A stretch of 59,686 nt of DNA from Patescibacteria group bacterium (GTDB lineage: Bacteria > Patescibacteriota > WWE3 > JAUXAW01 > JAYEID01): the NCBI GenBank assembly GCA_034659915.1, contig JAYEID010000012.1:1-59686 (forward strand). Direction: 5' to 3'. Both the position numbers and the translations under genes were made by a program. The notes beneath the pieces were generated by a model, which saw only the letters and a program-made list of their open reading frames with translations, did not search any database and had not been told where the DNA came from. This document shows positions 7,644 through 58,140 of the stretch, in pieces; positions within the stretch are counted from its first letter, which is position 1, and each line of letters begins with the position of its first letter.

Positions 7644-7698
7644 GCAAAGTCTATTATAACAAAAGCTTATTTCAAAACCACAAAGAAAGAAAAAAAGC

Positions 7699-7766
7699 GG
7701 AAAGAGTAGAACCTGCGTTCTTGCTCAAGAGCGTTGAGCTTTTCTCCCCAGGGGAGTACTCTTTCC
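7699..7766. ncRNA. 68-nt cloverleaf-like structured element, copy A
   Basis: Closing stem GGAAAGAGTA/TACTCTTTCC encloses three hairpins: GAAC-CTGC-GTTC, GCTCAA-GAGCG-TTGAGC, CTCCC-CAG-GGGAG. Second copy at 10934..11001. Confidence 0.55.
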
Positions 7767-7792
7767 GTAATACTGCTCTTCCTAACGCGCAT

Positions 7793-9450: not shown

Positions 9451-10686
9451 CTACTTGGCCAAAACTATAGCAATGGGAAGTTCTCTCCCCGGACCTACTG
9501 CATATTTACCGTTAATATAAAGGGCAGAACTTGCCCCGCCGTCCAAATTCAAGGCGTCCCTTGCTCCCAAAGCTTTCATCGCATAAGCCGATTCTGGCAC
9601 AGTCGCCCCATTAACAAGCGCTAGGTAAAGGTTACTACCATCCACACCAATTGCTCCTCTTAATCCGCGAATATCAGTCTGGTAAGAAGTAAGGTCATCT
9701 ATATCTACCACAACTTCACCTTCTGACAAGAGAGTAGGATAATTAGAAAGCCCAGCAGAACCCGCCTCGCCACCATAATCAGAAGATCTCTGGTAAAACT
9801 TTGCTGAGCTATCTTTAAACGTGGCTAAACCCGTCTTGCTCCAGCTTAGAGCTTCTTTTTGCAACCACCGCCCATTACTAGAATTGTAAAATGCAAAATC
9901 AGTAGAATTTGTTTTATTGGCACAGGTAACGTAATCCGGGGGGCAAAAATAACTAGCACTCATCCCCGCATAACCGCCGTGATCTTTAATATGCTCTTCC
10001 AGAGGTTTAACTGGACAGTTGTCATAACAAGTATCTTCGCTTGCTGAAGAAGTTACTACCCGCACATCAGAAAGAGCAACTTTCACCAAATGCACTCCAA
10101 AGCTTCCTCTCTCTGTATTTACAGTAACAAAGTCGTACCCTTCAATGTCAGAACGAGGAACTTCCCGGGGACGGAGTGACGCCAAGTATTCTTCGTGATC
10201 ATCATCTAAAGAACTTATTATATCCAGCATATTCTCTTTTAAAACATCGAAGTCTTTCTCCAAGAGCAATCCCTCCAAATCTTCCATTTCTTCTAATTCG
10301 TGAGCCACATCTAAGCCTAGTTCCTCATTTCTCTCCAAGTTCAACTTAAGAGAATTGTAAAGGCTGTATATTTCCTTCATCTCCAAATATTCCTTATTTT
10401 CTTCTTTTTCCGATAACTCAGTAAGTTCCTCTTCCAACTTAGATGCTTTTGATTCAACCTTAATTTTTTCAATGTGCCTTAAGTGATCTTCATAAATACT
10501 TCTTTCATAACTTTCTTCTTTCCGACTCAATTCTTGTGATAGGCTTTCCAAGCGCTGATTAACACTTTTTAACTCATGAAAAAGATAATTAACTGTATAA
10601 CCAAAAGACCCCACTATCACCAAAAACACAAATCCAATCAATACTATTTTTCTAGCCCAAATTTTTTGAAGTAGGGAACTCTCCAT
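9451..10686 (-). CDS. membrane-anchored coiled-coil protein with a C-terminal phosphodiester glycosidase (DUF2233/NAGPA-like) domain
   Basis: N-terminal TM helix and an E/K-rich coiled coil. The C-terminus RGAIGVDGSNLYLALVNGATV...ALNLDGGASSALYING is typical of DUF2233. Confidence 0.7.
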   Translation of the reverse strand: MESSLLQKIWARKIVLIGFVFLVIVGSFGYTVNYLFHELKSVNQRLESLSQELSRKEESYERSIYEDHLRHIEKIKVESKASKLEEELTELSEKEENKEYLEMKEIYSLYNSLKLNLERNEELGLDVAHELEEMEDLEGLLLEKDFDVLKENMLDIISSLDDDHEEYLASLRPREVPRSDIEGYDFVTVNTERGSFGVHLVKVALSDVRVVTSSASEDTCYDNCPVKPLEEHIKDHGGYAGMSASYFCPPDYVTCANKTNSTDFAFYNSSNGRWLQKEALSWSKTGLATFKDSSAKFYQRSSDYGGEAGSAGLSNYPTLLSEGEVVVDIDDLTSYQTDIRGLRGAIGVDGSNLYLALVNGATVPESAYAMKALGARDALNLDGGASSALYINGKYAVGPGRELPIAIVLAK

Positions 10687-10824: not shown

Positions 10825-10930
10825 GGGGAAGTGGTCTTTACTATTGAACTTGAAATTAAAACAAAGTAAGCAACTTTATGGAAGTCGGAAAACCCGAAGC
10901 TGTTGAAACCAATCAAAACTACAAAAATAA
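10825..10930 (+). pseudogene. decayed duplicate of the ATP-cone gene 3' end
   Basis: AACTTTATGGAAGTCGGAAAACCCGAAGCTGTTGAAACC..AAAACTACAAAAATAA aligns with 9207-9261 of the intact gene. A frameshift and stops lie upstream. Confidence 0.55.
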
Positions 10931-10933
10931 GGA

Positions 10934-11001
10934 GGAAAGAGTAGAACTTTCGTTCTTGCTTAGTGGCCATAAGCTTTATCTCCGCAAGGAGTACTCTTCC
11001 C
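10934..11001. ncRNA. 68-nt cloverleaf-like structured element, copy B
   Basis: Same architecture as 7699..7766. Hairpins are GAAC-TTTC-GTTC, GCTTA-GTGGCCA-TAAGC (C-G to T-A double change versus copy A) and CTCC-GCAA-GGAG. Confidence 0.55.
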
Positions 11002-11090
11002 TTAAACTAGCCACACGTATCTGAGTTTGGCATCTCTATGCCTCTTCCTTATTGGTCCGCGCCTTAAACTAAGACAACCAGCTCTATATG

Positions 11091-16039: not shown

Positions 16040-16218
16040 TACTAAGCAGAGCTGCCCTTCCATCCAAATTTAAGACATCTCTTGCCCCGAAACTTTCATT
16101 TCATAAACCGCCTCGGGCACTGTTGAATCACTAACAAACGCCAGATAAAGACTATTACCATCTACATCAATTGCGCCTCTTAGTCCGCAAACATCAGTTT
16201 GGTAAGAAGTTAGATTAA
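16040..16218 (-). pseudogene. fragment of a second phosphodiester glycosidase gene (paralog of 9451..10686)
   Basis: DNA aligns with 9520-9700. The minus strand reads NLTSYQTDVCGLRGAIDVDGNSLYLAFVSDSTVPEAVYEMK.., then an in-frame stop where LNLDGG is expected. The 5' part is absent. Confidence 0.6.
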
Positions 16219-16405
16219 CTAACAATATTTCCTTATACTACTACGCTATTAGCTTTCAGAAAAGCAATTAACTCGGGAGGTAGCAACTTCTTTACAAATA
16301 GTGTACAATAACCGTCTGCAACTTAGAGATTTTAACTTAAAATCTCCAAGTAAATTAGCTTTAGTGCACAGAAGTTCAAATAAAAAGGAGAGCTCGTTGA
16401 GTACA

Positions 16406-16925: not shown

Positions 16926-16971
16926 GGTGCTCTTTCAACGTGCGTCCCGCACAAAGAAGAGCACCTTCTTT
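16926..16971 (+). terminator. hairpin GGTGCTCTT...AAGAGCACC plus TTCTTT
   Basis: 9-bp stem with the inner hairpin GTGCG-TCC-CGCAC, just after the 16912 stop. Confidence 0.55.
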
Positions 16972-16987
16972 AGACCTCCGAGGTCTA
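16971..16987. repeat. AGACCT-stem palindrome (TAGACCTCCGAGGTCTA)
   Basis: Perfect palindrome between convergent genes. Family member of 9266, 17061 and 59419. Confidence 0.5.
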
Positions 16988-17060
16988 TAGACGCTGTCTC
17001 CACGGGCTTAAAGGCGTGGTTCTAATTTAGCCCTTTTCAAACCCATCATTACAAGGTTTT

Positions 17061-17078
17061 TATACCTCGGAGGTCTAG
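17061..17078. repeat. AGACCT-stem palindrome variant (TATACCTCGGAGGTCTAG)
   Basis: ACCTC-G-GAGGT core, 7 nt from the rtcB stop. Confidence 0.45.
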
Positions 17079-17084
17079 GAAGGG

Positions 17085-18254
17085 CTAAGCGATAACCACT
17101 GCGAGGGGGGTGAGGGTAATTTCCATCTTTGCCAAACTTTTTTGGTCTTCAACCACACTTTCAATATCTTTGTACGCCCAGGGGGATTCTTCGGGGATAT
17201 CGCTCTTTTTAGCTTTACCTAGAACTACACCGCGCTCTTTAATGTCTTCCATCACTTCCTGAACAGAATACTTCCTTTTGGCTTCTTTACGGCCCATTGT
17301 TCGTCCGGCACCGTGGGCACAAGACTCAAAGCTATCCGGGGTACCCAAGCCTTTGCCAATATAAGAATTGGTACCCAAACTACCCGGAACAATAACCGTT
17401 TCTCCCTCTCGCGCGCGAATTGCACCTTTGCGGTGAACCCAAACCTCCTTACCAAAATGTTCTTCCAAAGCCGCGTAATTATGGTGGGCATTTAACTGCT
17501 CCCCAAACTCAACCGGACCAAAGGTTTCCTCAAAGATTCTCTTAGCTACCTTCAAAATACGACGTCTGTTTTCCCGAGCAAACTTCATTGCTAACTGCAT
17601 AGCCTGAATATACGCCTGTGCATCTCCTGTTTCCAAATCCAAATAAGCTAAATCCCAATCGGGTAAATCCAAACCTCTCTTTTGGCATTGCTTTTGCGCT
17701 TTCTTATGAAAATGTTCAGCAATTGCGTAACCAAAATGGCGGGAACCAGTATGGACCATTAAAGACACCGAACCTTCATCTGTTTTCAAAACATCCACAA
17801 AATGATTACCCCCACCCAATGTACCCAAAGATTTTTTCGCTCGTTTAACCTCATGCTCCAACTCTGGGGGAAGTAAGTTTTTATCTAAAAACCCGGAACC
17901 AGCCTGGACTTTATCGTGAACACGGAAACCCATCGGCACTGCACGCATAACTTGCCCCGTGAAGTGCTGCAGCTTTTCTTCGGCAGCTTCTGCCGCAGGA
18001 AAATCTGTCGAAACGTAAGCCATCCCGCAGCCAATATCTACCCCCACCGCATTAGGGCAAATTGCCGCCTCCAAGGCCAAAACCCCACCGATGGGCATAC
18101 CGTAACCAATGTGGGCATCGGGCATTAGCGCGGTGTGGTGGTAAGCAGGCAAAAGGTTGGACATATTCCTTGCCTGCTGAAGACAATCTTCTTCCAAATT
18201 TTTGGGATCTGTAAAAACGTAAAGAGGAACTCTCTCGGTATCAATTATTTCCAT
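17085..18254 (-). CDS. rtcB: RNA ligase RtcB
   Basis: 389 aa with the RtcB metal/GMP-site motifs PDAHIGYG, GGGNHF, TGSRHFG, HHNYA, CAHGAGR. Confidence 0.9.
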   Translation of the reverse strand: MEIIDTERVPLYVFTDPKNLEEDCLQQARNMSNLLPAYHHTALMPDAHIGYGMPIGGVLALEAAICPNAVGVDIGCGMAYVSTDFPAAEAAEEKLQHFTGQVMRAVPMGFRVHDKVQAGSGFLDKNLLPPELEHEVKRAKKSLGTLGGGNHFVDVLKTDEGSVSLMVHTGSRHFGYAIAEHFHKKAQKQCQKRGLDLPDWDLAYLDLETGDAQAYIQAMQLAMKFARENRRRILKVAKRIFEETFGPVEFGEQLNAHHNYAALEEHFGKEVWVHRKGAIRAREGETVIVPGSLGTNSYIGKGLGTPDSFESCAHGAGRTMGRKEAKRKYSVQEVMEDIKERGVVLGKAKKSDIPEESPWAYKDIESVVEDQKSLAKMEITLTPLAVVIA

Positions 18255-23775: not shown

Positions 23776-25239
23776 ATGACTATAAAAAGATACGCAAAGT
23801 CTCTTAAAGACCACAACCTCATCCTAGATACAAACCTCCCTCAAAATCTAGAAATAAGTGGGATCAGTTCCGACTCCAGAAAAATCGAAAAGGGTAATAT
23901 CTTTGTAGCCATAAAGGGTTTAACATTTGACGGGCATCGCTTTATAACAGAAGCAAAACAAAAAGGAGCTGTAACTTTTGTAGTAGAAAAAAAGCTGCCC
24001 CAAGAATACCCCTATATTCAAGTAGCCGATACCAGAAAAGCTTTGGCTTGTCTCTGGTCCACCTATTACAACCATCCGCAAAAGAAGCTTAAAATAATTG
24101 GAGTAACTGGCACAGATGGAAAGACCACCACTACATATCTGATTCAACACTTTTTAAAAGCTGCTAGGTATGAAGCAGGACTGATTTCAACAGTTAAAGC
24201 GTGCTGGAACGACAAAGAAATCCCAACTGGCCAGCATGTTTCCACACCAGAACCCAAAGATTTGTTCAAAATACTTTCTCAAATGGTTAAAGATAACTGC
24301 ACCTACATAGTAGTAGAAACAACCTCACATGGGCTGGATCAAGACCGCGTTTTTGGCATTAACTTTGAAGTAGGCGTACTAACTAACATTACACCTGAAC
24401 ATCTTGATTACCATCACACATTTGAAGAATACAAGAAAACCAAGGCCAAACTTTTCCAAAATTCCCAAATTTCCGTCTTAAATGAAAATGACCCCCAAAT
24501 AAATTATTTTAAAAACAAGGCAAAAGGTGCAATAAAAACATATGACCACAAAAAAGAAAAACTCAACCTAAAATACGACAAGAAAAAATTACCCGGGGAC
24601 TACAACCGAGCTAATATTCTTGCTGCAAAGAAAGCAGCCCGTATCTTTAATGTTTCCGACCGTTCTTTACAAGAAGGACTCAAAAAATTCCAACCCCCAA
24701 AGGGTCGGTTCCAAGAAATAGTTAGCAACCAACCGTTCAAAATTATTATTGATTTTGCCCACACCCCCAACGCTTTAAAAGCATTACTTTCTACTGTTAA
24801 TAAAATCAAAAATAAAAACTCAGGAATAATCTGCGTGTTTGGCTGTGAGGGTGAGCGAGATAAAGGAAAGCGCGTTCCTATGGGCAAAATTTCTGCTCAC
24901 TACGCAAAAATCTCTATCCTCACCGCAGTTGACCCCCGCAACGAGTCCCTAAAATCAATAAACAAAACAATTGCCTTCGGCCTAAAAGTGGGTGGTGCTC
25001 ACAAAATTCACCAAAAAAATATTCATAAATTGGACAACACTAATACAAATAAACACTTTTTTATACAAATTCCGGATCGCGCTCGGGCAATTAAAAAGGC
25101 TTTACAACTCGCGAGAGTAGGGGACTGGGTACTGGTTTTAGGTAAGGGCCACGAAAAAACAATGAATCTTGGCAGCGGGGAGGTACCCTGGAGTGACCAA
25201 CAAGCAATAAAAAATGCTCTCACCACTTTTAGTACGTAA
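23776..25239 (+). CDS. murE: UDP-N-acetylmuramoyl-L-alanyl-D-glutamate--2,6-diaminopimelate (or L-lysine) ligase
   Basis: SSDSRKIEKGNIFVAIKGLTFDGHRFI, GVTGTDGKTTT, DFAHTPNAL. Confidence 0.85.
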   Translation: MTIKRYAKSLKDHNLILDTNLPQNLEISGISSDSRKIEKGNIFVAIKGLTFDGHRFITEAKQKGAVTFVVEKKLPQEYPYIQVADTRKALACLWSTYYNHPQKKLKIIGVTGTDGKTTTTYLIQHFLKAARYEAGLISTVKACWNDKEIPTGQHVSTPEPKDLFKILSQMVKDNCTYIVVETTSHGLDQDRVFGINFEVGVLTNITPEHLDYHHTFEEYKKTKAKLFQNSQISVLNENDPQINYFKNKAKGAIKTYDHKKEKLNLKYDKKKLPGDYNRANILAAKKAARIFNVSDRSLQEGLKKFQPPKGRFQEIVSNQPFKIIIDFAHTPNALKALLSTVNKIKNKNSGIICVFGCEGERDKGKRVPMGKISAHYAKISILTAVDPRNESLKSINKTIAFGLKVGGAHKIHQKNIHKLDNTNTNKHFFIQIPDRARAIKKALQLARVGDWVLVLGKGHEKTMNLGSGEVPWSDQQAIKNALTTFST

Positions 25240-29384: not shown

Positions 29385-29941
29385 TATTATTAGTGTATTC
29401 CAAACTAGGAAAGTGGGTCCCAAATCCTAACCCAGTGTTTATAAGAAACGTCGCTCAATGTAGATTATACGACGTATAGGCTTAGATTAACCCATTTCTA
29501 AACAAAAATCAAGCAAGCCAACACCCATCTTCAAGCCTCCTTCAAATCTAAATCCTCATCCAAACAAAAAAATCAAACCTCCTACCCTCAGCAAACTTTG
29601 CGGCTTAATTTTTTACAAAAAAAGGGATAGAAACTACAAAGGGGAGTGCAAAAAAATTAAAAGCAAAAATTGAACAAAAAAACAATTTTTTAGCCAATAC
29701 TTATATCATGTTTAGAAAAAAATTGCCTTAGAAATGCTCTAAGCGGCTCAACAATTATTCCCTATAATAATAGGTTATCCACAAAATAACAAAATAGGGA
29801 AGTTCCAGTTTTCTGAAAAAGTTCGGATATAAATTTAGAGGGAAACCTTTTTGGGGAATTAAGCAAAAAAAAATATAAGAAAAAAATACAAAATAAAACT
29901 TAAAAAATTTAGGCTTGGTATTTTTTTTTGTTTTTTTTGTT

Positions 29942-29955
29942 CCACCAGCTGGTGG
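29942..29955. repeat. P3-type palindrome variant CCACCAGCTGGTGG followed by ATTGGATTTGGAA
   Basis: The same 3' flank (ATTGGATTTGGAA) follows CCGCCGGCCGGCGG inside ychF at 47900. Confidence 0.55.
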
Positions 29956-30092
29956 ATTGGATTTGGAAAGATGAAAAGACTTCAACAATTAAGTTAAGGC
30001 GCCCTTTATTATAGGATAAGTACTAACTACCGTGTTATAGGATAATAATTAGCACTTGCTGCTTCTCGCTGATAAGTCCCCTACTCTCTCAC

Positions 30093-31401: not shown

Positions 31402-31676
31402 AATTAGTAGTAGGCAGTAGTCATCAGTAATCCTCGATCCGCTTTCGGCAGTCATCCTGAAGGAGTCCCGATTTATCGGGACGACTGAAGGATCCCCTGC
31501 AAAAGGCACTGTACAGTAACATCACGGTCGCCGAAGAGGCGACTTCTACCCGTCATTTAAAATTCAAAATCTATTCCCTATTCATTATTTATTATTTAGT
31601 ATTTCGTATTTATTTGGAGCTTCGTATTTCGAATTTTCTTTATTTGTAATTTGTTATTTAGTGTTATTTAGTTATC

Positions 31677-31717
31677 GAGACCTCCAAGGATTAAACAGGT
31701 TAAACCTTGCAGGACTC
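31677..31717. repeat. conserved AGACCT hairpin module of the composite repeat (copy A)
   Basis: GAGACCT-C-CAAGG[loop]CCTTG-C-AGGACTC. The inner stem covaries with copies at 46999 and 55895. Confidence 0.55.
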
Positions 31718-31749
31718 TCAGGTCCGATTCTCCAGTTACGAGTTACGAG

Positions 31750-31773
31750 TCCCTGCCGGCCGGCAGGCAGGTC
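31750..31773. repeat. P1-type GC-rich palindrome (CCCTGCCGGCCGGCAGGCAGG)
   Basis: Other members at 47650, 51497 and 55861. Confidence 0.7.
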
Positions 31774-31843
31774 CAGTCTCTTATCTTTTATTCCTTAACT
31801 CTTATTTCTTATCTCAGCTCAACTTCGTCTTTTTTTTTCTTCC

Positions 31844-32422
31844 TCATTTTTCTTCCTCATTTTTCTCCTGCATTTTCTTCCCCTCTCCCCTACTCTGCTC
31901 TTCCCCACCAAGCTGCTTATCTTCTTCATTTTTTAAAACATTTTTCAAAGCTGCAAAGGGAGCTCGCTCATTTTCCTCTGGAATTAAAGCCACAGCCTCA
32001 TCACCCTCCTCCCCTTGATAGTAACTAACAGCTGCCGGCAGAAGTCTATACGAGCCGTGGGAATCGACTACATGCCAAGCACCATCCTTCTTAGCCAAAA
32101 CACCTCTTATTTCCCGCCGCTTTACTCTTTCCACCTGCTTAAAAAAGTTCCGCCCCTCTTTATCAATCATCTTCAACCGATCCCCATAAACCAATTCTGA
32201 TTTAGAAGCATAGTTCTCAGGAACCTGATATTTTTCACCTTCCTCAGTTACCATTTCATGCCCATTAAAAGTCCCAAAAACACCAGGAAGTTCGCGAGGA
32301 TCACGTTCTTTCGCCTCTTCCAGCTCATTTAGCAACCGCTTAGCTAGATGAATACTCGAAACTGCTGCTGATAATGCTTGGTGTATATTTTGGATTTTTT
32401 TTCTCTCCTTTTTCTCAGTCAT
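31844..32422 (-). CDS. hypothetical protein (192 aa) upstream of the VirD4-like ATPase region
   Basis: Good ORF with a charged tail. No motif recognised. Confidence 0.6.
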   Translation of the reverse strand: MTEKKERKKIQNIHQALSAAVSSIHLAKRLLNELEEAKERDPRELPGVFGTFNGHEMVTEEGEKYQVPENYASKSELVYGDRLKMIDKEGRNFFKQVERVKRREIRGVLAKKDGAWHVVDSHGSYRLLPAAVSYYQGEEGDEAVALIPEENERAPFAALKNVLKNEEDKQLGGEEQSRGEGKKMQEKNEEEK

Positions 32423-34959: not shown

Positions 34960-35094
34960 ATAGCATCAGAAGAGACGCGCTAAAAGCATGGAACATAAAA
35001 ACATAGAACATAGGAAATAAGAGATACGAGATAATAAATAATAAAAATAAGAAGAAAATATGAAGGGACTATAAAATTACGGGTTCGCCATTTG

Positions 35095-36887: not shown

Positions 36888-37967
36888 CTAGGAAATAAAC
36901 TTGTCCGCCTTTTCAGCACATTCTTTGCACATAGTTGCTGCAGGATAAGCTCGAAGTCTTTGAGGATCTATCGTCTTGCCGCATCTCTCACATTCGTGGT
37001 AATTTCCCCCTTGCAACCTACTTAAAGCCTTGTCAATTTGGCTACCAAATCGATGCAAAAAATCAGACATTACCTCTACATACTCATGACTTAGAAGCTC
37101 CTCAGCCTCATCACCACTTTCAGCATTATCATCTTCTCTCCCTTCCCTAAAAAATTGATCACCCTGCCTAAGTTGGGTTGTTTCTTTCATAATCTCGTCC
37201 TTCTCGCTTCTTAGCCAATCCCGCAGCTGATTAGATATATCCTCAAGACTTACCTTCTCCTCTTCCCCAAATTTATCCTTACCACTCAGCACACGGTAAC
37301 CCAACAACAAACCACACACTACCATAACAGAAGAAGCTGCCTTTTGAAAAGTAAACAAGCTATCCCCTGAATATAAACTATAAAAATCAAAAACTAAACT
37401 AACTAAGCCCGACCCCACCAAATAAAAAGAAGTTAATGCACCTACCCTAACAGATCCAAAGAGGTTAAAGAATCGCTGCCGCTCAACAACCAAAGCAAGC
37501 ACGAAAAGAACTATATACGCCAAAATTTCAACCCAAATGTGAGGAACAACTAAGCGAGATACCAAAACACCAACAGACCCAAAAGCCTGTCCCAATAAAA
37601 GAGGGGGAACAGCTAAGTCAGCTAGCTTTAGAACAGACCACCCCTTACGCCTAACAAAAAGGTAAAAAGAACCGGCACCAAAAGCAAAACCACCAAGAAA
37701 ATTTAACCCCGAGCCCAATGAACGAAAAACGTCGCTCCAATTGCTCTTAAAAACTGAAAAGTTTATAGCAATAAAAACCAACCTTGCCCCAAAAATTCCA
37801 GCTACAAGACTAATTAAAGAAAGGTCCAATATCTTCTCTTCATCAAAACCCTCTTCCCTAGCCCGCTGCCAAAAAAGAAAAGCTCCCAAAAATACCCCTA
37901 GAGCTAGAAGAATTCCCTGGTAATAAATTGTTACTGGTCCAAGATGTAGAAAAACGGGATCAATCAT
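36888..37967 (-). CDS. fusion: Lgt-like (prolipoprotein diacylglyceryl transferase-like) membrane domain plus C-terminal DksA/TraR C4 zinc finger
   Basis: The N-terminus GPVTIYYQGILLALGVFLGAF...LVAGIFGARLVFI is Lgt-like. The C-terminus IDKALSRLQGGNYHECERCGKTIDPQRLRAYPAATMCKECAEK is the DksA/TraR finger. Confidence 0.65.
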   Translation of the reverse strand: MIDPVFLHLGPVTIYYQGILLALGVFLGAFLFWQRAREEGFDEEKILDLSLISLVAGIFGARLVFIAINFSVFKSNWSDVFRSLGSGLNFLGGFAFGAGSFYLFVRRKGWSVLKLADLAVPPLLLGQAFGSVGVLVSRLVVPHIWVEILAYIVLFVLALVVERQRFFNLFGSVRVGALTSFYLVGSGLVSLVFDFYSLYSGDSLFTFQKAASSVMVVCGLLLGYRVLSGKDKFGEEEKVSLEDISNQLRDWLRSEKDEIMKETTQLRQGDQFFREGREDDNAESGDEAEELLSHEYVEVMSDFLHRFGSQIDKALSRLQGGNYHECERCGKTIDPQRLRAYPAATMCKECAEKADKFIS

Positions 37968-38302
37968 ATAGAAAAAGGTTGCTTAACCTAGCCTTGTCCC
38001 GACTCGCCGTATTCGCAACCCATCAAGTCTTAAAAGATACAGGTCCTTCGCACAAGGTTACGGGCGACACCCCTTCTTCTAAACTCGCTTTGTCCCGACC
38101 TGTCGGGACCGAAGCTCGTTAAGAATGAAGCGCCGTAAATATCTTGCCACTTATGCCGTCCAATTTCGAACGCTCGCTAAAGCAGGTTAAATCACGTTAA
38201 GTTCGAAGGAAACGTGAAATCCCTCGCGGGATTAACGTCCCACTGTGAAAATTAACGAATCGGTTTCGGACTACGTCCTTACCTCTTCGAATTTTCACGT
38301 GA

Positions 38303-40499: not shown

Positions 40500-40625
40500 A
40501 GTTACCAGTTTCCGGTTTCTTCTTTCTTATTCGTAGTATATTCGTTGTACGAATAGAATTTATACCTTAATTATTCGCAATGTATTCGCTATCCCAATGC
40601 TTACTACTAACTACTGATTACTAAT
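40500..40625. repeat. composite repeat fragment, copy E (ATTCGN word array)
   Basis: CTTATTCGTAGTATATTCGTTGTACGAATAGAATT..CCTTAATTATTCGCAATGTATTCGCTATCCC matches the reverse complement of 55660-55860. Confidence 0.6.
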
Positions 40626-41949: not shown

Positions 41950-42264
41950 ATGAAAGAAGATTTGCATCCCAAATACTATCCCGAGGCAAAAGTAACTTGT
42001 GCCTGCGGAAATAAATTCACCTTAGGCTCTACTAAGCCAGAGCTAGAGGTAGAGGTATGTTTCGCCTGCCACCCTTTCTACACAGGCAAGAGCAAGTTTA
42101 TTGACAGTGAGGGGCGCGTAGAAAAATTCGAAAGGAAACGAAAGGAGGCAGAACTTCGCGAAAAGGAAGAAAAAGAAAGGGAAAAGAAAGAAAAAGAGAA
42201 AGAAAAGAAAGAAGAAGAACAACCAAAAACACTCAAAGAAATGCTAGAAAGGATAGAAAAATAA
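41950..42264 (+). CDS. rpmE: 50S ribosomal protein L31 with a Lys/Glu-rich C-terminal extension
   Basis: [21 protein letters not shown] core. About 40 extra K/E-rich residues. Confidence 0.9.
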
Positions 42265-42998
42265 TGCCTCAGATTTCCCCTAGAAGCAACCGTGCCATTC
42301 TTGAAATAAGAGCAGGTACTGGCGGAACAGAAGCTGGCTTATTTGCCAAGAATTTATGGAATATGTACCTGAATTACGGCAAAAGTAAAGGGTGGAAGTT
42401 TAAAATACTTTCCAAAAGTATTGGAGAACTAAAAAGTGTACGGGAAATTACTGCCGCTATCGCTGGCAAAGATGTCTATCAACTACTTAAAAACGAATCG
42501 GGTGTACACCGAGTCCAAAGAATTCCAAGAACAGAATCCTCAGGAAGAATACACACTTCTACAGCTACTGTAGCTGTACTTCCTGTTATTCCCACTAAAA
42601 AGATCAAGCTTAAACCCAAAAACTTGGAAATAGAAACATACCGAGCATCTGGACCAGGGGGACAATTTGTAAATAAAGTTGAAACAGCAGTTCGAGTTAC
42701 ACACAAACCAACCGGAATAACAGTTGAATCCCAAGATTCCCGCACCCAGCAAAAAAACAAAGAGAAAGCTCTAAGTCTTCTCAGAATGAAACTCGCACAC
42801 TTGCTAAGGGAACAAAAGAAAGAAAAGATTGACGATCTTAGGCGTTCCCAGATTGGTAGCGCCGAGCGTTCCAGAAAAATAAGAACCTACAACGTCCCAC
42901 AAGACCGGGTCACCGACCACCGCATTAACAAATCCTGGCGCAATTTAGAAGGAATACTTGAAGGAGATATCGAAGAAATTCTTGCTGCTACCTCATAG
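42264..42998 (+). CDS. prfA: class I peptide chain release factor lacking N-terminal domain 1 (RF1-like)
   Basis: Starts at the equivalent of ILEIRAGTGGTEA. RVQRIPRTESSGRIHTSTATVAVLP and the GGQ motif RASGPGGQFVNK are present. The ATG overlaps the rpmE stop (ATAATG). Confidence 0.8.
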   Translation: MPQISPRSNRAILEIRAGTGGTEAGLFAKNLWNMYLNYGKSKGWKFKILSKSIGELKSVREITAAIAGKDVYQLLKNESGVHRVQRIPRTESSGRIHTSTATVAVLPVIPTKKIKLKPKNLEIETYRASGPGGQFVNKVETAVRVTHKPTGITVESQDSRTQQKNKEKALSLLRMKLAHLLREQKKEKIDDLRRSQIGSAERSRKIRTYNVPQDRVTDHRINKSWRNLEGILEGDIEEILAATS

Positions 42999-46633: not shown

Positions 46634-47218
46634 AGCGGGCTAAATCTTAACATAAAACAAGTAAATTGTCAGCTATTAGCTATCAACAACCACTCGTCAC
46701 TCTGCGGTCCAATCCGCCCTCCGCTTTCCGTACACCGCGATCATCCTGAAAGAGTTCCCGATTCAATTTAGCAGTCATTCTGAGCCGAGCTTCCAGCGAG
46801 GCGAAGAATCCCCTGCAATAAACTGCAACATCGCGGTCGATTCTTCGTCGGTTTAAGAAAACCTCCTCAGAATGACTTCTAGCCGTCATTTAAAATTCAT
46901 CCCCTATTTCCTATCTCTTATTCATTATCCCTTATTTATTATTTATTATTTCTTTATTTGTTTGGAACTTGGAATTTGTAATTTGTTATTTAGTTATCGA
47001 GACCCGAAGGGACGTACCCTACGCCTGCCGTGTACTCTACGTAGTACTGCGGTGGTGCTGTTCTCCAAGGACTACATCCGTAGACCCCTGGGGTGTGCCG
47101 TATGGTACTACCCTTGCAGGTTCTCTTAGGTTCCAGTCCCTTCCTCCCAATTCACATGAATTTGCTATTATTAAATTCGCAACGTATTCGCTATACTAAT
47201 TCGCATTAATTAGCTATT
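46634..47218. repeat. composite intergenic repeat, copy B
   Basis: Colinear with copy A. Contains a roughly 103-nt nested hairpin (GTCATTCTGAG 46774-46784 / CTCAGAATGAC 46866-46876, inner CGAAGAATC/GATTCTTCG). Also contains an ATTCGC word array at 47160-47215. Confidence 0.75.
46999..47125. repeat. AGACCT hairpin module with a roughly 100-nt insertion in the loop (copy B)
   Basis: GAGACC-CGAAGGG...CCCTTG-C-AGGTTCTC. The loop includes ACCCCTGGGGT (47084-47094). Confidence 0.45.
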
Positions 47219-48352
47219 TCAAATCTTAAACTCAACCACATCACTATCGTGGACAATATAATCTCTCCCACGCACATCAATAATTCCCTGTTCCTTTGCA
47301 GCTAACCACGAACCAGCCTCAATCAGCTCTTGGACTTGAACAACTTCTGCCCGGATAAAATTCTCGGCAAAATCACTATGCACAATTTCAGCTGCCCGCA
47401 AAACAGAAGAACCCTTCTTAATTGGCCAAGCACGAACAATCTCCCCTCCCTTAACAGTGTAGAAAGTAATCAATTCCAAAAGATTATAGCAGCCGCGGAT
47501 TACCTTATCCAAAGCAGACTCCGAAATACAAACCCCCTCTAAGTACTCTTTCCTTTCTTCCGGCGTAAAATCCGCTAAATCCTCTTCCAACTTGGCACAA
47601 ATGGGGATGGCCGAAGATAGGCTACCGCATTCCTCAGCCTCAGGAGCTAGACCTGCCTTGCCGGCAGGCAGGTCCGCAGAAGCCCCTGGGGCTTCTCCTG
47701 CAGCAGCCTCGTCTATATTGGCCACCACCAACTGCGGCTTCATAGTTAATAAATTCAAATCCTCTATCGCCTCTTCCTCTTCTTCTGTAAGCTTTGCTTC
47801 CACAGCCAATCTCCCCTCCTCCAAAACCTTTGACACCTTCTCAACCGCCCTCTTTTTTATTGTTTCTCTCTTATTTACATTTCCTTTTTGGAACTTGGTC
47901 CGCCGGCCGGCGGATTGGATTTGGAATTTCGAAATCCTCTCTAAATCTTTGAGCAACAACTCCGTATTAACTGTTTGCAAATCCTCCGCAGGATCAGCAC
48001 CACCTACCCTTTCCACACCCTCGCCTTCAAAAGCACGAACCAAATGCAACACAACATCCACATTTCTGATATGAGAAAGAAATTCATTGCCCAGACCCTC
48101 ACCCTCATGTGCACCTTTGACCAAGCCAGCTATATCCACAAACTCAATAGCAGCAGGTATTTTTTCTTTTGGATTTAAAACTTCTGCAAGCTGGTCTAAA
48201 TGCTCGTCTTTTACTTCCACCACCCCCACGTTCGGCTCAATCGTACAAAACGCGTATGGAGCGGTATTAGCCACACTACGACCAAGAAGAGCATTAAAAA
48301 GTGTTGATTTTCCAGCATTAGGAAGCCCTACAATTCCTACAGATACATCCAT
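47219..48352 (-). CDS. ychF: redox-regulated ATPase YchF carrying repeat-derived segments
   Basis: [27 protein letters not shown]-terminal TGS-like [13 protein letters not shown]...FIRAEV. Confidence 0.92.
47650..47674. repeat. P1 palindrome inside ychF (GACCTGCCTTGCCGGCAGGCAGGTC)
   Basis: Translated in frame as DLPAGKAGL. Confidence 0.8.
47678..47696. repeat. P2 palindrome inside ychF (AGAAGCCCCTGGGGCTTCT)
   Basis: Perfect 9-1-9 palindrome, translated as GEAPGAS. Confidence 0.8.
47900..47913. repeat. P3 palindrome inside ychF (CCGCCGGCCGGCGG)
   Basis: Flanked by TTTGGAACTTGGT and ATTGGATTTGGAATTTCGAAAT, strings otherwise seen only in the intergenic composite repeats. Confidence 0.75.
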
Positions 48353-50994: not shown

Positions 50995-51247
50995 AACTAT
51001 ATAATAACATAGGAAAGGTAAACCATGGGAACATAGAACAAAAAACATGAGAAGAGACTGAAGACAAGAGACTAGTAACAAGAGATAAGAAATAGAAAAT
51101 AATACGGAAGAAATTACAAATCACATCCGCCGGCTGGCGGATCAAGTTCCAAAAACGAAAAATAGAGAATAAGAAAAAAAAATCAACAAGAGGTAACTTC
51201 AAACTTTGAGCAAAAAGTAGTCAACAACAAGCAAAAAATCTGTATCC
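50995..51247. repeat. composite intergenic repeat, copy C (inverted relative to A/B)
   Basis: AAATTACAAAT[CACATCCGCCGGCTGGCGGAT]CAAGTTCCAAA is the reverse complement of the TTTGGAACTTGG..ATTTGTAATTT block of copy B, with a P3 palindrome inserted. Confidence 0.65.
51127..51140. repeat. P3 palindrome variant (CCGCCGGCTGGCGG)
   Basis: One mismatch from a perfect palindrome. Sits in copy C. Confidence 0.7.
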
Positions 51248-51928
51248 CTAAAATTCTGTGCGTCCCTCAAAAGCGTGGGAAAGTGTTACCTGGTCAGCAT
51301 ATTCTAAATCCCCTCCTACCGGCAAACCTTTAGCAATTCGAGTAATCTTTATATTCAGCGACTCTAACTGCTCTTTTATATACATTGCTGTTGATTCCCC
51401 CTCCATCGATGGGTTAGTAGCAATAATTACCTCGGAAATCCGCTCATCGCTTTCCGATTCATCGGCCGCAGCAGGAGAAGCCCCAGGGGCTGGGGAACCT
51501 GCCTTGCCGGCAGGCAGGTGCTGCGGGCTATTTTTCACGCGGTCCACCAATTCATTAATCTTCAAATCTTCAGGACCAATATTATTAACAGGCGAAATAA
51601 CACCATGTAGAACATGATAGAGACCTTTATAATCAGTAGTACCCTCTACCGCCAAAACATCCAACGGGCTTTCAACTACACATATAGTTGATTTGTCCCT
51701 ACCCGAAGAGCGGCAAATTTTACATGGGCTCTCCTCATCAACACTAAAACAAATTTCACAAAGAACAGTCTTCTTTCGCAACTCAAACAATGCCTCAGCT
51801 AACAAGTCCACTTCTTCTTCAGGAACATAAAGAAGATAAAAAGTCAGCCTTTTTGCTGTCTTTGGTCCTATACCAGGAAGCCTTTGCAATGCGTTTATTA
51901 AATTTTGTACTGGTTTTGGTATTTCCAT
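51248..51928 (-). CDS. recR: recombination protein RecR with a repeat-derived in-frame insertion
   Basis: LPGIGPKTAKRL (HhH), C4 zinc finger CEIC..CKIC, Toprim EVIIATNPSMEGESTAMYI. Confidence 0.92.
   Translation of the reverse strand: MEIPKPVQNLINALQRLPGIGPKTAKRLTFYLLYVPEEEVDLLAEALFELRKKTVLCEICFSVDEESPCKICRSSGRDKSTICVVESPLDVLAVEGTTDYKGLYHVLHGVISPVNNIGPEDLKINELVDRVKNSPQHLPAGKAGSPAPGASPAAADESESDERISEVIIATNPSMEGESTAMYIKEQLESLNIKITRIAKGLPVGGDLEYADQVTLSHAFEGRTEF
51474..51491. repeat. P2 palindrome inside recR (GGAGAAGCCCCAGGGGCT)
   Basis: Translated as part of [10 protein letters not shown]. Confidence 0.75.
51497..51519. repeat. P1 palindrome inside recR (ACCTGCCTTGCCGGCAGGCAGGT)
   Basis: Identical 23-mer to the ychF copy. 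Translated as HLPAGKAGS. Confidence 0.8.
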
Positions 51929-53622: not shown

Positions 53623-53629
53623 AAGATGT

Positions 53630-53645
53630 GCAGCTCAGAAGCTGC
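53630..53645. repeat. CAGCT-stem hairpin family member (GCAGCTCAGAAGCTGC)
   Basis: 8 nt upstream of the dnaX start. A second hairpin, GCGGCT-GGGA-AGTCGC, follows at 53664-53680. Confidence 0.55.
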
Positions 53646-53755
53646 ATAAAACAATAGTAATTTGCGGCTGGGAAGTCGCGTAAATTGTGATTAAGAAACC
53701 ACACGTAACTCAATAGTAATAGTAATTGACAAAATCCCAAACTACCACCGTACTA

Positions 53756-54295: not shown

Positions 54296-54360
54296 AAACT
54301 TCGTTTGAATAACAATTACAGTGCGCTACCCTCAAAAAACTATATGGAGTTCGAAAAGTA

Positions 54361-54374
54361 CAGCTCGAAAGCTG
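54361..54374. repeat. CAGCT-stem hairpin family member (CAGCTCGAAAGCTG)
   Basis: Same orientation and GTACAGCTC...GCTGCAATAAA context as 58068 and 53630. Confidence 0.55.
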
Positions 54375-54555
54375 CAATAAATGCTTGGCCTAAAGGATTC
54401 GCGATAAACAATAGATAAACAATTATGTATCTTTTGTACATGCATCGTATAGCTATTGTATATCAAGCATTTATCTACTGTTTATCCACTGTATATCTAA
54501 CCTTTAACATCTTACCTCTTAAGGGGTAACAAGCTATCAGGATATCTCTAATGCT

Positions 54556-55303: not shown

Positions 55304-55485
55304 TTATGATGCTGAGAGAATCGCCATTCAAGTTCTTTTCTCTTTTTCTTCTTTATCTCTGACGGTGGTCTGTAATACTCTCGCTTTTTCAACTCTTCTA
55401 TAATCCCGGCATCATAAACTTTTTGATTAAAGCGGCGAAGCGCTTGCTCAATAGACTCCCCCTCCCGTACCTTAACTTCAGTCAC
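55300..55485 (-). CDS. rpsU: 30S ribosomal protein S21
   Basis: VKVREGESIEQALRRFNQKV...YYRPPSEIKKKK. Confidence 0.9.
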   Translation of the reverse strand: MTEVKVREGESIEQALRRFNQKVYDAGIIEELKKREYYRPPSEIKKKKRKELEWRFSQHHK

Positions 55486-55860
55486 GTGTACTAAATTACA
55501 CCTCCTTATTAAAAAAACTTTTAAACTTAAAATAAATTCTGTCGCTTAAATTTTACACTTTTACAACAAGGTAAGCAAATTATGCCCAAAAAGAAAAAGG
55601 CTTCCCTACAGGAAATAAACAGGTCAAACCTCAACTCCTCCCTATATGAAAAGAAAAATTGGGATAGCGAATCTATGCGAATTGATATAGCTAATTTATG
55701 CGAATTTAACAGTAGCGAATTAATGCGAATTAGTATAGCGAATACGTTGCGAATTTAATATAGCGAATCTGTTACGAATAGTTAAGGTATGAATTCTATT
55801 TATGCTACGAATTGACTACGAATACTACAAATATACTACGAATAAGAGAGAAGAAACTGG

Positions 55861-55881
55861 ACCTGCCTGCCGGCAGGCAGG
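55861..55881. repeat. P1 palindrome (ACCTGCCTGCCGGCAGGCAGG), perfect 20-bp core
   Basis: CCTGCCTGCCGGCAGGCAGG is its own reverse complement. Confidence 0.8.
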
Positions 55882-55894
55882 CACTCGAACCTAA

Positions 55895-55934
55895 AAGACC
55901 TGCGGGGTTTCGGAATCGAATCCCCGGAGGTCTT
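55895..55934. repeat. AGACCT hairpin module (copy D)
   Basis: AAGACCT-G-CGGGG[TTTCGGAATCGAAT]CCCCG-G-AGGTCTT. The inner stem is CGGGG/CCCCG where copy A has CAAGG/CCTTG. Confidence 0.6.
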
Positions 55935-56069
55935 GGTAGATTGCAGAAAGAAGATAAGAAATAGTAAATAGGAGATAAGGGATAAGGGATAGGAGATAAA
56001 AATAAATTACAAATGACAAATGCGGAGAGTGGGGTGCTGTACATCGTACGCGGAATACGGACACCCGAT

Positions 56070-56083
56070 CCGCCGGCCGGCGG
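56070..56083. repeat. P3 palindrome (CCGCCGGCCGGCGG)
   Basis: Identical to the ychF copy. Confidence 0.75.
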
Positions 56084-56294
56084 AGGCGGACGAAGCTCCA
56101 AATAAATACGAAATATTAAATAAGAAATAATAAATAATGAATAATGAATAAGAAATAAAGGGAGGTGGAAAATAATTGCTTATTGTTAATTGCTGACAGC
56201 AGAATGCGGATATCTAATTACTAGTTACTAATCACTAATTACTTACTACTTACTACTCGCTAATTACTAGTTACCAGCTGCTAACTGCTTACCA

Positions 56295-58054: not shown

Positions 58055-58140
58055 TCAGCGTTAAGTACAGCTCAGAAGCTGCGTTAAAGTGCAGGCAGAC
58101 CTGCGTAAAGAACTCGGGCCTTTGGCCCTCGCGTTAAAAA
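58055..58140. repeat. array of three short hairpins, each followed by CGTTAAAG-like spacers
   Basis: CAGC-TCAGA-AGCTG (58068-58081), GCAGG-CAGA-CCTGC (58091-58104), GGGCC-TTT-GGCCC (58116-58128). Confidence 0.55.

Follow-up and report, generated by a model that had tools for sequence, protein, structure and literature searches.

GTAG-tagged repetitive extragenic palindromic (REP) sequences and REPINs carry an unpaired GTAG at one end of an imperfect palindrome of 20-40 nt and are mobilised by RAYTs, transposases of the Y1 HUH type. Miniature inverted-repeat transposable elements (MITEs) are recognised by terminal inverted repeats together with a target-site duplication, and the Rickettsia palindromic element RPE-1 has a length of about 100-150 nt. 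In the CGTC-tagged REP superfamily, which includes dRS3, RPE-4 and RPE-6, a CGTC (or TGTC/CCTC) tag precedes an 8-9-bp stem starting with AT, a loop of 4-5 nt and a CCA tail, and copies within genes are documented, notably in DNA repair genes and aminoacyl-tRNA synthetase genes (Di Nocera et al. 2013, PMC3733652). The heptameric short tandemly repeated repetitive (STRR) sequences of cyanobacteria and the small dispersed repeats (SDRs) of Nostocaceae (Elhai et al. 2008) are summarised in PMC5861425 and PMC3116915, and as far as these summaries go SDRs have been reported only in Nostocaceae. TIGR (tandem interspaced guide RNA) arrays, which are known in candidate phyla radiation (CPR) bacteria, consist of two alternating 8-12-nt repeats with 9-nt spacers in a 36-nt unit, with a gene encoding the Nop-domain protein Tas adjacent (PMC12045711). 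Here we describe composite repeats filling intergenic spacers of a CPR/Patescibacteria genome, analysed and counted within the 59,686 nt of contig JAYEID010000012.1 (the window). Proteobacterial REP sequences with their bacterial interspersed mosaic elements (BIMEs), RPEs and STRRs/SDRs are the closest known kinds, although none of them fits as a family. Classification as non-autonomous selfish DNA resembling REP/BIME, RPE and STRR/SDR elements is the best-supported reading, and we assign a probability of roughly 0.6 to the view that the spacers are occupied by copies of a non-coding mosaic repeat that is probably selfish.

Three spacers share 8-11 blocks in the same order. Copy A (31402-31843, + strand) lies between the stop of the open reading frame (ORF) 31844-32422 and the start of yebC. 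Copy B (46634-47218, +), the locus singled out in a previous inspection of the bare sequence by a model (the sequence-only reading), is bounded by the ychF stop (47219) and the rpsF start (46633), while copy D (55487-56294, -) is inverted and lies between the proS stop and rpsU, the S21 gene at 55304-55486 that adjoins its start. The six blocks quoted in the sequence-only reading were all confirmed in their places by a position check, among them GTCATTTAAAATTCA at 31552 and 46885, TATTTATTTGGAGCTTCG at 31607 (+) and 56091 (-), GTTATTTAGTTATCGAGACC at 31663 and 46985 and CCTTGCAGG at 31705 and 47112. In a self-comparison of the kind that it had proposed, run by BLAST on the window, A matched B with 78-80% identity over 66-74 nt and inverted D with 90-91% over 48-54 nt, and B matched inverted D with 98% over 48 nt; these colinear blocks include GC-rich ones and are not AT-rich low complexity alone. 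An all-against-all BLAST of 11 spacers returned 10 matches of at least 45 bits versus none in 30 composition-preserving first-order Markov shuffles. Global alignment yielded z-scores of 23 for A and B, 16 for A and reverse-complemented D and 12 for B and reverse-complemented D, whereas D in the + orientation scored 0.3 and -0.8 against A and B. Block colinearity and the orientation-dependent z-scores thus identify A, B and D as copies of one long composite, with D inverted, and substantiate the claim of a long repeat family present in both orientations.

The proposed membership of the family stood in part, with A, B and D as full copies and the remainder reduced in rank. Copy C (50995-51247, -), between recR and cysS, is partial and shares only a heptamer stretch and an element around the small palindrome P1; its segment 51110-51160 is 88% identical, in inverted orientation, to ychF positions 47880-47930 in the self-BLAST, and 51083-51101 matches 55952-55970 of D in the spacer BLAST. 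The likewise partial fragment E (40511-40624, +), in the divergent spacer upstream of hisS, consists of a CTTCTT block, ATTCG(T/C) arrays and ACTACTA heptamers and contains a good match to D of about 100 nt (40511-40598, 82-90%; 90% at 40511-40549 in the self-BLAST), with 40511-40592 aligning to D 55861-55760 at 82-90%. The other two listed fragments share one motif type each, 37968-38302 only a GTCCCGA..TCGGGAC palindrome and 34960-35094 only AT-rich heptamers. The latter would fit low-complexity AT-rich similarity or an assembly artefact, the objection that the sequence-only reading had raised against itself, and some of the similarity elsewhere is indeed of this kind. For the family, this explanation has a negligible probability: GC-rich blocks of 20-50 nt are shared between copies at 88-100% identity, none of the shuffles matched the observed scores, and the same modules occur in independent assemblies, isolate genomes included, so that shuffles and assemblies together rule the objection out. 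Searches with parts of the composite were negative for the GTTATTTAGTTATCGAGACC 20-mer in the searched collection of genome contigs, for the ATTCGC-array pattern in the searched collection of metagenome contigs, for B by BLAST in annotated plasmids and for D by BLAST in annotated phages, and a look-up of exactly matching proteins was negative as well.

The window genes are housekeeping genes of a CPR/Patescibacteria bacterium. Its YchF is 62-70% identical to proteins of uncultured metagenome-assembled genomes (MAGs) and about 50% identical to those of Beckwithbacteria, WWE3 and Shapirobacteria. The minus-strand order proS-rpsU-yqeY-ybeY-pth-dnaX-recR-cysS-(C39 peptidase)-ychF-rpsF-ssb is kept in relatives, except that the C39 peptidase gene is missing from some. 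The ychF-rpsF spacer measures 585 nt here versus about 44 nt in L082, 55 nt in L085 and 149 nt in L081; the recR-cysS spacer 253 nt versus 43-48 nt in L085 and L081 and 161 nt in L001; and the proS-rpsU spacer 808 nt versus 194 nt in L085 and 311 nt in L083. Orthologous spacers in the three measurable syntenic relatives, L081, L082 and L085, are thus 43-194 nt long at unchanged gene order, from which we infer that the long spacers of the window are insertions; the search for empty sites suggested by the sequence-only reading therefore found them. A putative rpsF promoter (CTGACA-17-TGnTAAGAT, 46644-46672, -) marks the gene-proximal edge of insertion B, and a like-arranged putative promoter is situated about 10 nt from the rpsF ATG in L081 and L082. 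Its position next to the ATG in all three implies that B was inserted between the ychF stop and the promoter.

This arrangement bears on the idea that structured non-coding RNAs, or long leaders regulating the downstream ribosomal-protein genes, are encoded in the spacers. B lies upstream of rpsF and D upstream of rpsU, stable hairpins are present, and the inner stem of the GACCTCC...GCAGGTC hairpin module varies between copies by paired changes, all of which favour an RNA. However, copy B as a whole is upstream of the putative rpsF promoter, which is no more than about 40 nt from the ATG, and D is inverted relative to A and B while all flanking genes are on the minus strand. Moreover, no Rfam family matches B or D at E <=1, tRNA-Leu being the only Rfam match across the whole window, and the fold of the whole spacer is barely better than that of shuffled sequences (z -2.0). 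We therefore regard such RNAs or leaders as very unlikely. With copies in both orientations, the lack of an Rfam match and relatives' spacers of 43-194 nt, the contention that these are not simply conserved promoters or leaders holds. Pseudogene remnants were likewise considered and rejected, as the ORFs within the spacers have no credible Pfam match.

The composite has unlike ends, one formed by TAGTAAN heptamers and the other by an ATTCGC array. Of 18 period-7 tandem arrays detected in the window by Tandem Repeats Finder (TRF), 15 fall in these spacers; D contains AATAAAT, TAATTGC and CTAATTA arrays at 56101-56290, and others are located at 31572-31614, 31777-31815, 46905-46985, 51052-51106 and 55947-56022. 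Intergenic tandem 7-nt repeats of unknown function are also what the available summaries describe as STRRs, and, like the SDRs of the same summaries, the palindromes described below are dispersed elements of about 20 nt, apparently mobile and nested in other repeats. The elements of the window are set apart from the STRRs and SDRs of Nostocaceae by their CPR host. A cyanobacterial origin, to which the heptamers might have pointed, was rejected because the genes match CPR MAGs and HIP1 sites are absent from the window.

The ATTCGC arrays have a unit of about 24-25 nt, in which two words are 10-11 nt apart and pairs are separated by 13-15 nt. One occupies the ychF end of B (47149-47218, +) and is 98% identical to D 55713-55760, a second lies in D (55657-55779, -; TRF period 25, 4.5 copies, pattern enriched) and a third in fragment E (40528-40598). 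The array of D is conserved in L001, L101 and L107, and an ATTCGC array also follows ychF in L001. Like TIGR arrays, they alternate two short conserved words with short variable gaps in a CPR genome. A reading as TIGR- or CRISPR-like guide arrays was nevertheless rejected: units of about 24 nt and gaps of 3-7 nt do not agree with the 36 nt and 9 nt of TIGR arrays, UG/CCA box motifs are missing, and there is no gene for a Nop-domain Tas protein nearby, the neighbours being proS, rpsU, ychF and rpsF. High-GC MAGs of Alphaproteobacteria (L102, L104, L109 and L110) contain tandem ATTCGCT heptamers, often as inverted pairs (AGCGAAT...ATTCGCT), which indicates that in other phyla the ATTCGC word occurs as a simple 7-nt satellite as well.

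The regular spacing raises the alternative that the shared blocks are functional cis-elements of a common regulatory design, the ATTCGC arrays providing phased protein-binding sites for promoters and the hairpins acting as terminators or insulators. The words recur every 10-15 nt on a single strand, and arrays are found upstream of the rpsU promoter here and in L001, directly upstream of the TTGACA -35 element of mraZ in L107 and 60-130 nt upstream of hisS. Furthermore, arrays are conserved between genomes at two orthologous sites, and a T-rich tail on the gene strand follows the palindrome P2 in D. Yet the array of B, like that of its L001 orthologue, directly adjoins the 3' end of ychF and faces away from any gene, orientation relative to the flanking genes varies among copies, and L081, L082 and L085 serve the same genes with spacers of 43-194 nt that contain no arrays. 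In addition, the same palindromes also occur inside coding sequences, and scans for promoters and terminators gave no enrichment over shuffles. Regulatory elements as the reason for the shared blocks are hence unlikely in our view. Separate from the upstream ATTCGC array, L107 has three direct GTGGTGA repeats with 10-nt spacing between promoter and mraZ (positions 270-312 of L107), and these resemble the direct-repeat operator bound by MraZ in Escherichia coli.

The hairpins are the third kind of module. The nested hairpin that the sequence-only reading saw in B was supported by folding: the GTCAT-tagged structure GTCATTCTGAG...CTCAGAATGAC at 46774-46876 (arms 46774-46784 and 46866-46876) has a minimum free energy of -45.6 kcal/mol and a z-score of -4.0. 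A contains the hairpin GTCATCCTGAAGGA...GACTGAAGGATCC (31451-31500), within which the palindrome GTCCCGATTTATCGGGAC (31465-31482) is nested. A further module, GAGACC...CCTTGCAGG, spans 46999-47125 in B and has short forms at 31679-31715 in A and 55899-55934 in D; its inner stem varies by paired changes (CAAGG/CCTTG versus CGGGG/CCCCG). As in CGTC-tagged REPs, the GTCAT hairpins open with a CGTC or AGTC tag followed by AT, and P1 is usually followed by CCA. Features of the CGTC superfamily are present only in part. The sequence CGTC-ATTTAAAAT-TCA occurs at 31550 and 46883, the AGTC-AT hairpins at 31451 and 46774 have long interiors and a paired tag, and P1, with a stem of 6 bp around a 4-nt centre, has a CCA tail but no constant tag. 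In contrast to CGTC REPs, the interiors of the tagged hairpins in the window are 20-80 nt long instead of being loops of 4-5 nt, and the tag is base-paired. A separate hairpin family, (A/T)GCAGCTC(A/G)(G/A)AAGCTGC, was noticed in the minus-strand spacers pth-dnaX, ybeY-pth and rseP-proS at 53626-53651, 54356-54381 and 58063-58088, with a weaker member at 24511-24536; the dnaX-recR spacer of L081 and L082 has a similar hairpin, GCAGCTTCTGAGCTGC.

The overall organisation resembles that of REP/BIME DNA. Small palindromes and other short motifs cluster into intergenic mosaics, mostly between unidirectional or convergent genes and occasionally inside genes, and, in the manner of BIME mosaics, one order of modules recurs in A, B, reverse-complemented D, L101 and L107. 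The elements differ from REP/BIME in their CPR host, in the heptamer arrays, which are not a BIME feature, and in the lack of a RAYT gene in the window, none being present near the 120 listed P2 loci either. Unlike GTAG REPs and REPINs, the palindromes P1, P2 and P3 have no constant GTAG in themselves or in their flanks in the window and are perfect, with no unpaired tag, and the flanks of P2 are diverse (164 sites). MITEs differ as well, since the ends of the composite are not alike and an exact abutting 7-nt direct repeat was present at only 4 of 121 listed P2 sites.

The unit is thus a mosaic of much smaller elements in a CPR host, some of them in frame in ychF and recR, which goes beyond what the sequence-only reading had proposed. 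P1 (16 nt), P2 (20-22 nt) and P3 (about 19 nt) are small perfect GC-rich palindromes. P1, TCCGCCGGCCGGCGGA, is located at 47899 in ychF, at 51126-51141 in C and at 56069-56084 in D. A degenerate copy, TCCACCAGCTGGTGGA, with flanks as in the ychF copy, occupies 29937-29968 (palindrome at 29941) and is 84% identical to 47895-47926. The spacer in which it lies, 29424-30092, is a very AT-rich stretch of 669 nt outside the members previously listed and also contains A-rich tandem repeats. P2, CCTGCCTGCCGGCAGGCAGG, has an exact copy at 55862-55881 in D and a variant at 31752-31771 in A, whose left junction, AGTCCCTGCC, is the same as in L107.

In ychF, the P1 element (47880-47930, -; palindrome 47899-47914, TTCCAAA-type flanks) is in frame and encodes a stretch of 13 aa. 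In the YchF alignment it is common to the four closest proteins (P0002-P0004, L081, L082) and missing from the rest, and the differences between relatives are mostly synonymous, which implies that the element is translated and under selection. A second in-frame insert, at 47650-47708 (-), combines a P2 variant with a 21-nt core (47650) and P3, AGAAGCCCCTGGGGCTTCT (47676), encodes 20 aa (LPAGKAG...) and was seen only in the YchF of the window, being missing from all 18 other YchF proteins aligned. A P2 variant (51495) and P3 (51464) are also in frame in the recR linker (51464-51521, -), where they encode 18 aa; the P2 core is identical to the ychF copy at 23 of 23 positions, and P3 is on the opposite side and in the opposite orientation. 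The RecR of L085 (201 aa) has no insert in the linker, whereas five other aligned RecR proteins, that of the window included, each have their own set of GC palindromes there (20-75 aa), with an in-frame CGTC-type hairpin among those of L082. As the AlphaFold model of YchF had too low a mean pLDDT (44.6), insert positions were taken from an alignment to 1JAL, according to which the YchF inserts fall at the coiled-coil tip and in a loop.

Palindromic repeats in frame in essential genes as well as in intergenic DNA of a small genome (two sites in ychF and one in recR), with the inserted peptide in permissive regions, are reminiscent of RPEs. They are set apart by length, the units inside genes being 16-60 nt, and by another phylum as host, the tie to heptamers and the presence of P2 in many phyla. 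Our literature search found no paper linking RPE-like elements to CPR bacteria and none with the P1 or P2 sequences; of four encoded peptide strings searched in the literature, one gave matches, solely to an unrelated kinetoplastid protein.

Copies of the mosaic were also found outside the window. In the related MAG CAZOPS01, the source of L001, it is present at no fewer than 4 loci in the order heptamers, hairpin, optional P2, CTTCTT block and ATTCGC array, namely upstream of rpsU and of mraZ (L107), downstream of ychF and on a further contig (L101). Over 454 nt that include rpsU, the rpsU-proximal part of D and L001 are 83% identical, and contig L001 terminates in inverted copies of the mosaic. 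In an alignment of the copies, L107 has P2 at a point where L001 and L101 lack it, which constitutes a direct case of nested insertion, or of loss.

The two small palindromes P1 and P2 are not specific to this genome and occur, exact or near-exact, across many phyla. P1 with heptamer-like flanks was found at 14 loci, about 10 of them convincing, and different CPR genomes have it in frame in LepA, LeuRS, ValRS and TpiA. The exact P2 20-mer was found at 120 loci or more; the listed matches, to which the following P2 statistics refer, include CPR bacteria, Bacteroidota (cultured isolates among them), Omnitrophota, Planctomycetota, Bdellovibrionales and others. P2 was present in 35 IMG/VR phage-contig stretches as well, a single contig holding as many as six copies. 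Its sites are underrepresented in long ORFs (20% versus 71% in open frames of at least 200 aa), although real in-frame cases exist (LPAGRQ), for instance in FtsK. A period-7 array lies within 150 nt of 26% of P2 sites versus 3.4% of controls, periods other than 7 show no comparable enrichment, and 9% of the sites versus 1.4% of controls are at the tip of a larger inverted repeat; at times P2 is nested in itself or in other repeats. In other CPR genomes (L125, L147 and L140), partial tRNA fragments located immediately upstream of intact tRNA genes contain P2 in the region of the D-arm, and these fragments look like attachment-site remnants of integrated elements. Five candidates for P2 as a tiny tRNA intron were rejected: L125, L147, L140 and L209 are partial tRNA fragments, three of them beside intact tRNAs, and in L209 and L195 (a 137-nt contig) no tRNA was detected.

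These occurrences allow a further alternative to be weighed, in which the palindromes are not mobile and form in place, time and again, through hairpin or template-switch errors at short GC-rich repeats such as (CCG)n and (CCTG)n, only the long copies being spread by segmental duplication or gene conversion. P1 and P2 are indeed built from inverted (CCG)2 and (CCTG)2 runs, all palindromes are perfect, centre included, and neither a target-site duplication nor a linked transposase was found. On the other hand, the flanks of P2 are unrelated and show no CCTG/CAGG extension (164 sites), which defines P2 as a discrete unit of 20-22 nt. Moreover, P2 is mostly found in low-GC genomes, where such seeds are rare, with a median locus GC of 0.42 and GC below 0.5 at 96 of 120 loci, so that base composition does not explain its occurrences, and unrelated genes in different CPR genomes contain P1 together with conserved heptamer-like flanks. 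Repeated origin in place consequently appears quite improbable.

Altogether, the data argue for a mosaic, non-coding and probably selfish repeat. This reading is based on colinear copies in both orientations, on relatives that keep gene order yet have short spacers, on the inserts in frame in ychF and recR with P2 and P3 in different order and orientation, on the CAZOPS01 mosaics with optional P2, on P1 with its flanks in frame in four genes of other CPR genomes, and on P2 as a discrete unit that recurs exactly, is depleted in ORFs and is associated with period-7 arrays. The copies would owe their existence to mobility, and we infer a mobiliser, which presumably is either an enzyme that recognises hairpins and acts in trans or a process of replication or recombination. 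In the mechanism that we propose, the building blocks are 7-nt tandem arrays, ATTCGC arrays with a unit of about 24 nt, GTCAT/CGTC-tagged hairpins and the tiny perfect GC-rich palindromes, the last of which may act as non-autonomous insertion units. These would insert between units of the heptamer arrays, at other hairpins' tips and inside other repeats, and also in frame in essential genes where a surface loop tolerates them. Mosaics would then grow by nested insertions and by slippage of the heptamer arrays, and whole mosaics, or large parts of them, could subsequently be copied to new intergenic sites in either orientation.

Several observations weigh against this reading. No transposase or HUH/RAYT-like gene was detected within the 59.7-kb window, no gene recurs near the 120 P2 loci examined, and no general target-site duplication accompanies P2; with so few sites carrying an exact abutting 7-nt direct repeat (3%), a 7-bp target-site duplication was also rejected as the origin of the heptamers. 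The constant module order suggests some constraint or homogenisation beyond random accumulation. Concordantly, the ATTCGC arrays are 83-88% identical at the orthologous sites of L001, whose YchF is only 62-65% identical, and this conservation suggests constraint or homogenisation and leaves room for a phased protein-binding role.

We tentatively raise the possibility that P1 and P2 represent an undescribed pan-bacterial class of perfect-palindrome insertion elements of 16-22 nt. P2 is exact and P1 near-identical in CPR bacteria, Bacteroidota and several other phyla, and P2 also occurs in phage contigs. Such elements might leave the target unduplicated on insertion, favour sites in hairpin tips and next to or inside heptamer arrays, and become fixed in frame in essential genes.

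Other repeats and gene features of the window were noted in passing. Downstream of a gene for an RtcB-type RNA ligase (17085-18254, -) there is a 42-nt inverted repeat with TAGACCTCCGAGGTCTA hairpins (16971-17012 / 17036-17077). The first 17 kb contain further repeat pairs with 77-79% identity over 73-159 nt, 9532-9701 with 16053-16221 and 7676-7770 with 10911-11005, one arm of the former pair being within the C-terminal part of the NAGPA-domain ORF 9451-10686. A CT-rich 13-nt tandem repeat (31823-31881) spans the stop of ORF 31844-32422, the product of which ends in ...EKNEEEK, and a 21-nt GAAAAG-type repeat (42160-42219) gives ribosomal protein L31 a Lys/Glu-rich C-terminal extension. The release-factor gene at 42264-42998 is short (244 aa), as are its counterparts in relatives (248-250 aa), and judging from its translation the ORF at 36888-37967 apparently fuses Lgt to a C-terminal DksA/TraR-like C4 zinc-finger region.

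The genomes of CPR/Patescibacteria are regarded as small and streamlined. In the genome studied here, repeat mosaics of 0.25-0.8 kb lie between core translation and replication genes, and repeat-derived peptides have become fixed in YchF and RecR, implying that genomes of this kind can harbour miniature repeats as an active load. The repeats also break assemblies, as seen at the ends of L001, and may add to the fragmentation of such MAGs. Cultured Bacteroidota that carry P2, such as Winogradskyella echinorum and Flagellimonas yonaguniensis, make the element experimentally testable. The interest would increase should the palindromes found across phyla, and their connection with heptamer arrays, turn out to be undescribed, and if P1 and P2 do form a pan-bacterial insertion class, its activity would be linked to the origin of STRR-type heptamer arrays. 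An exact 20-nt palindrome shared by many phyla and phages and associated with 7-nt arrays thus offers a handle on how elements of the REP, SDR and STRR types originate and spread.

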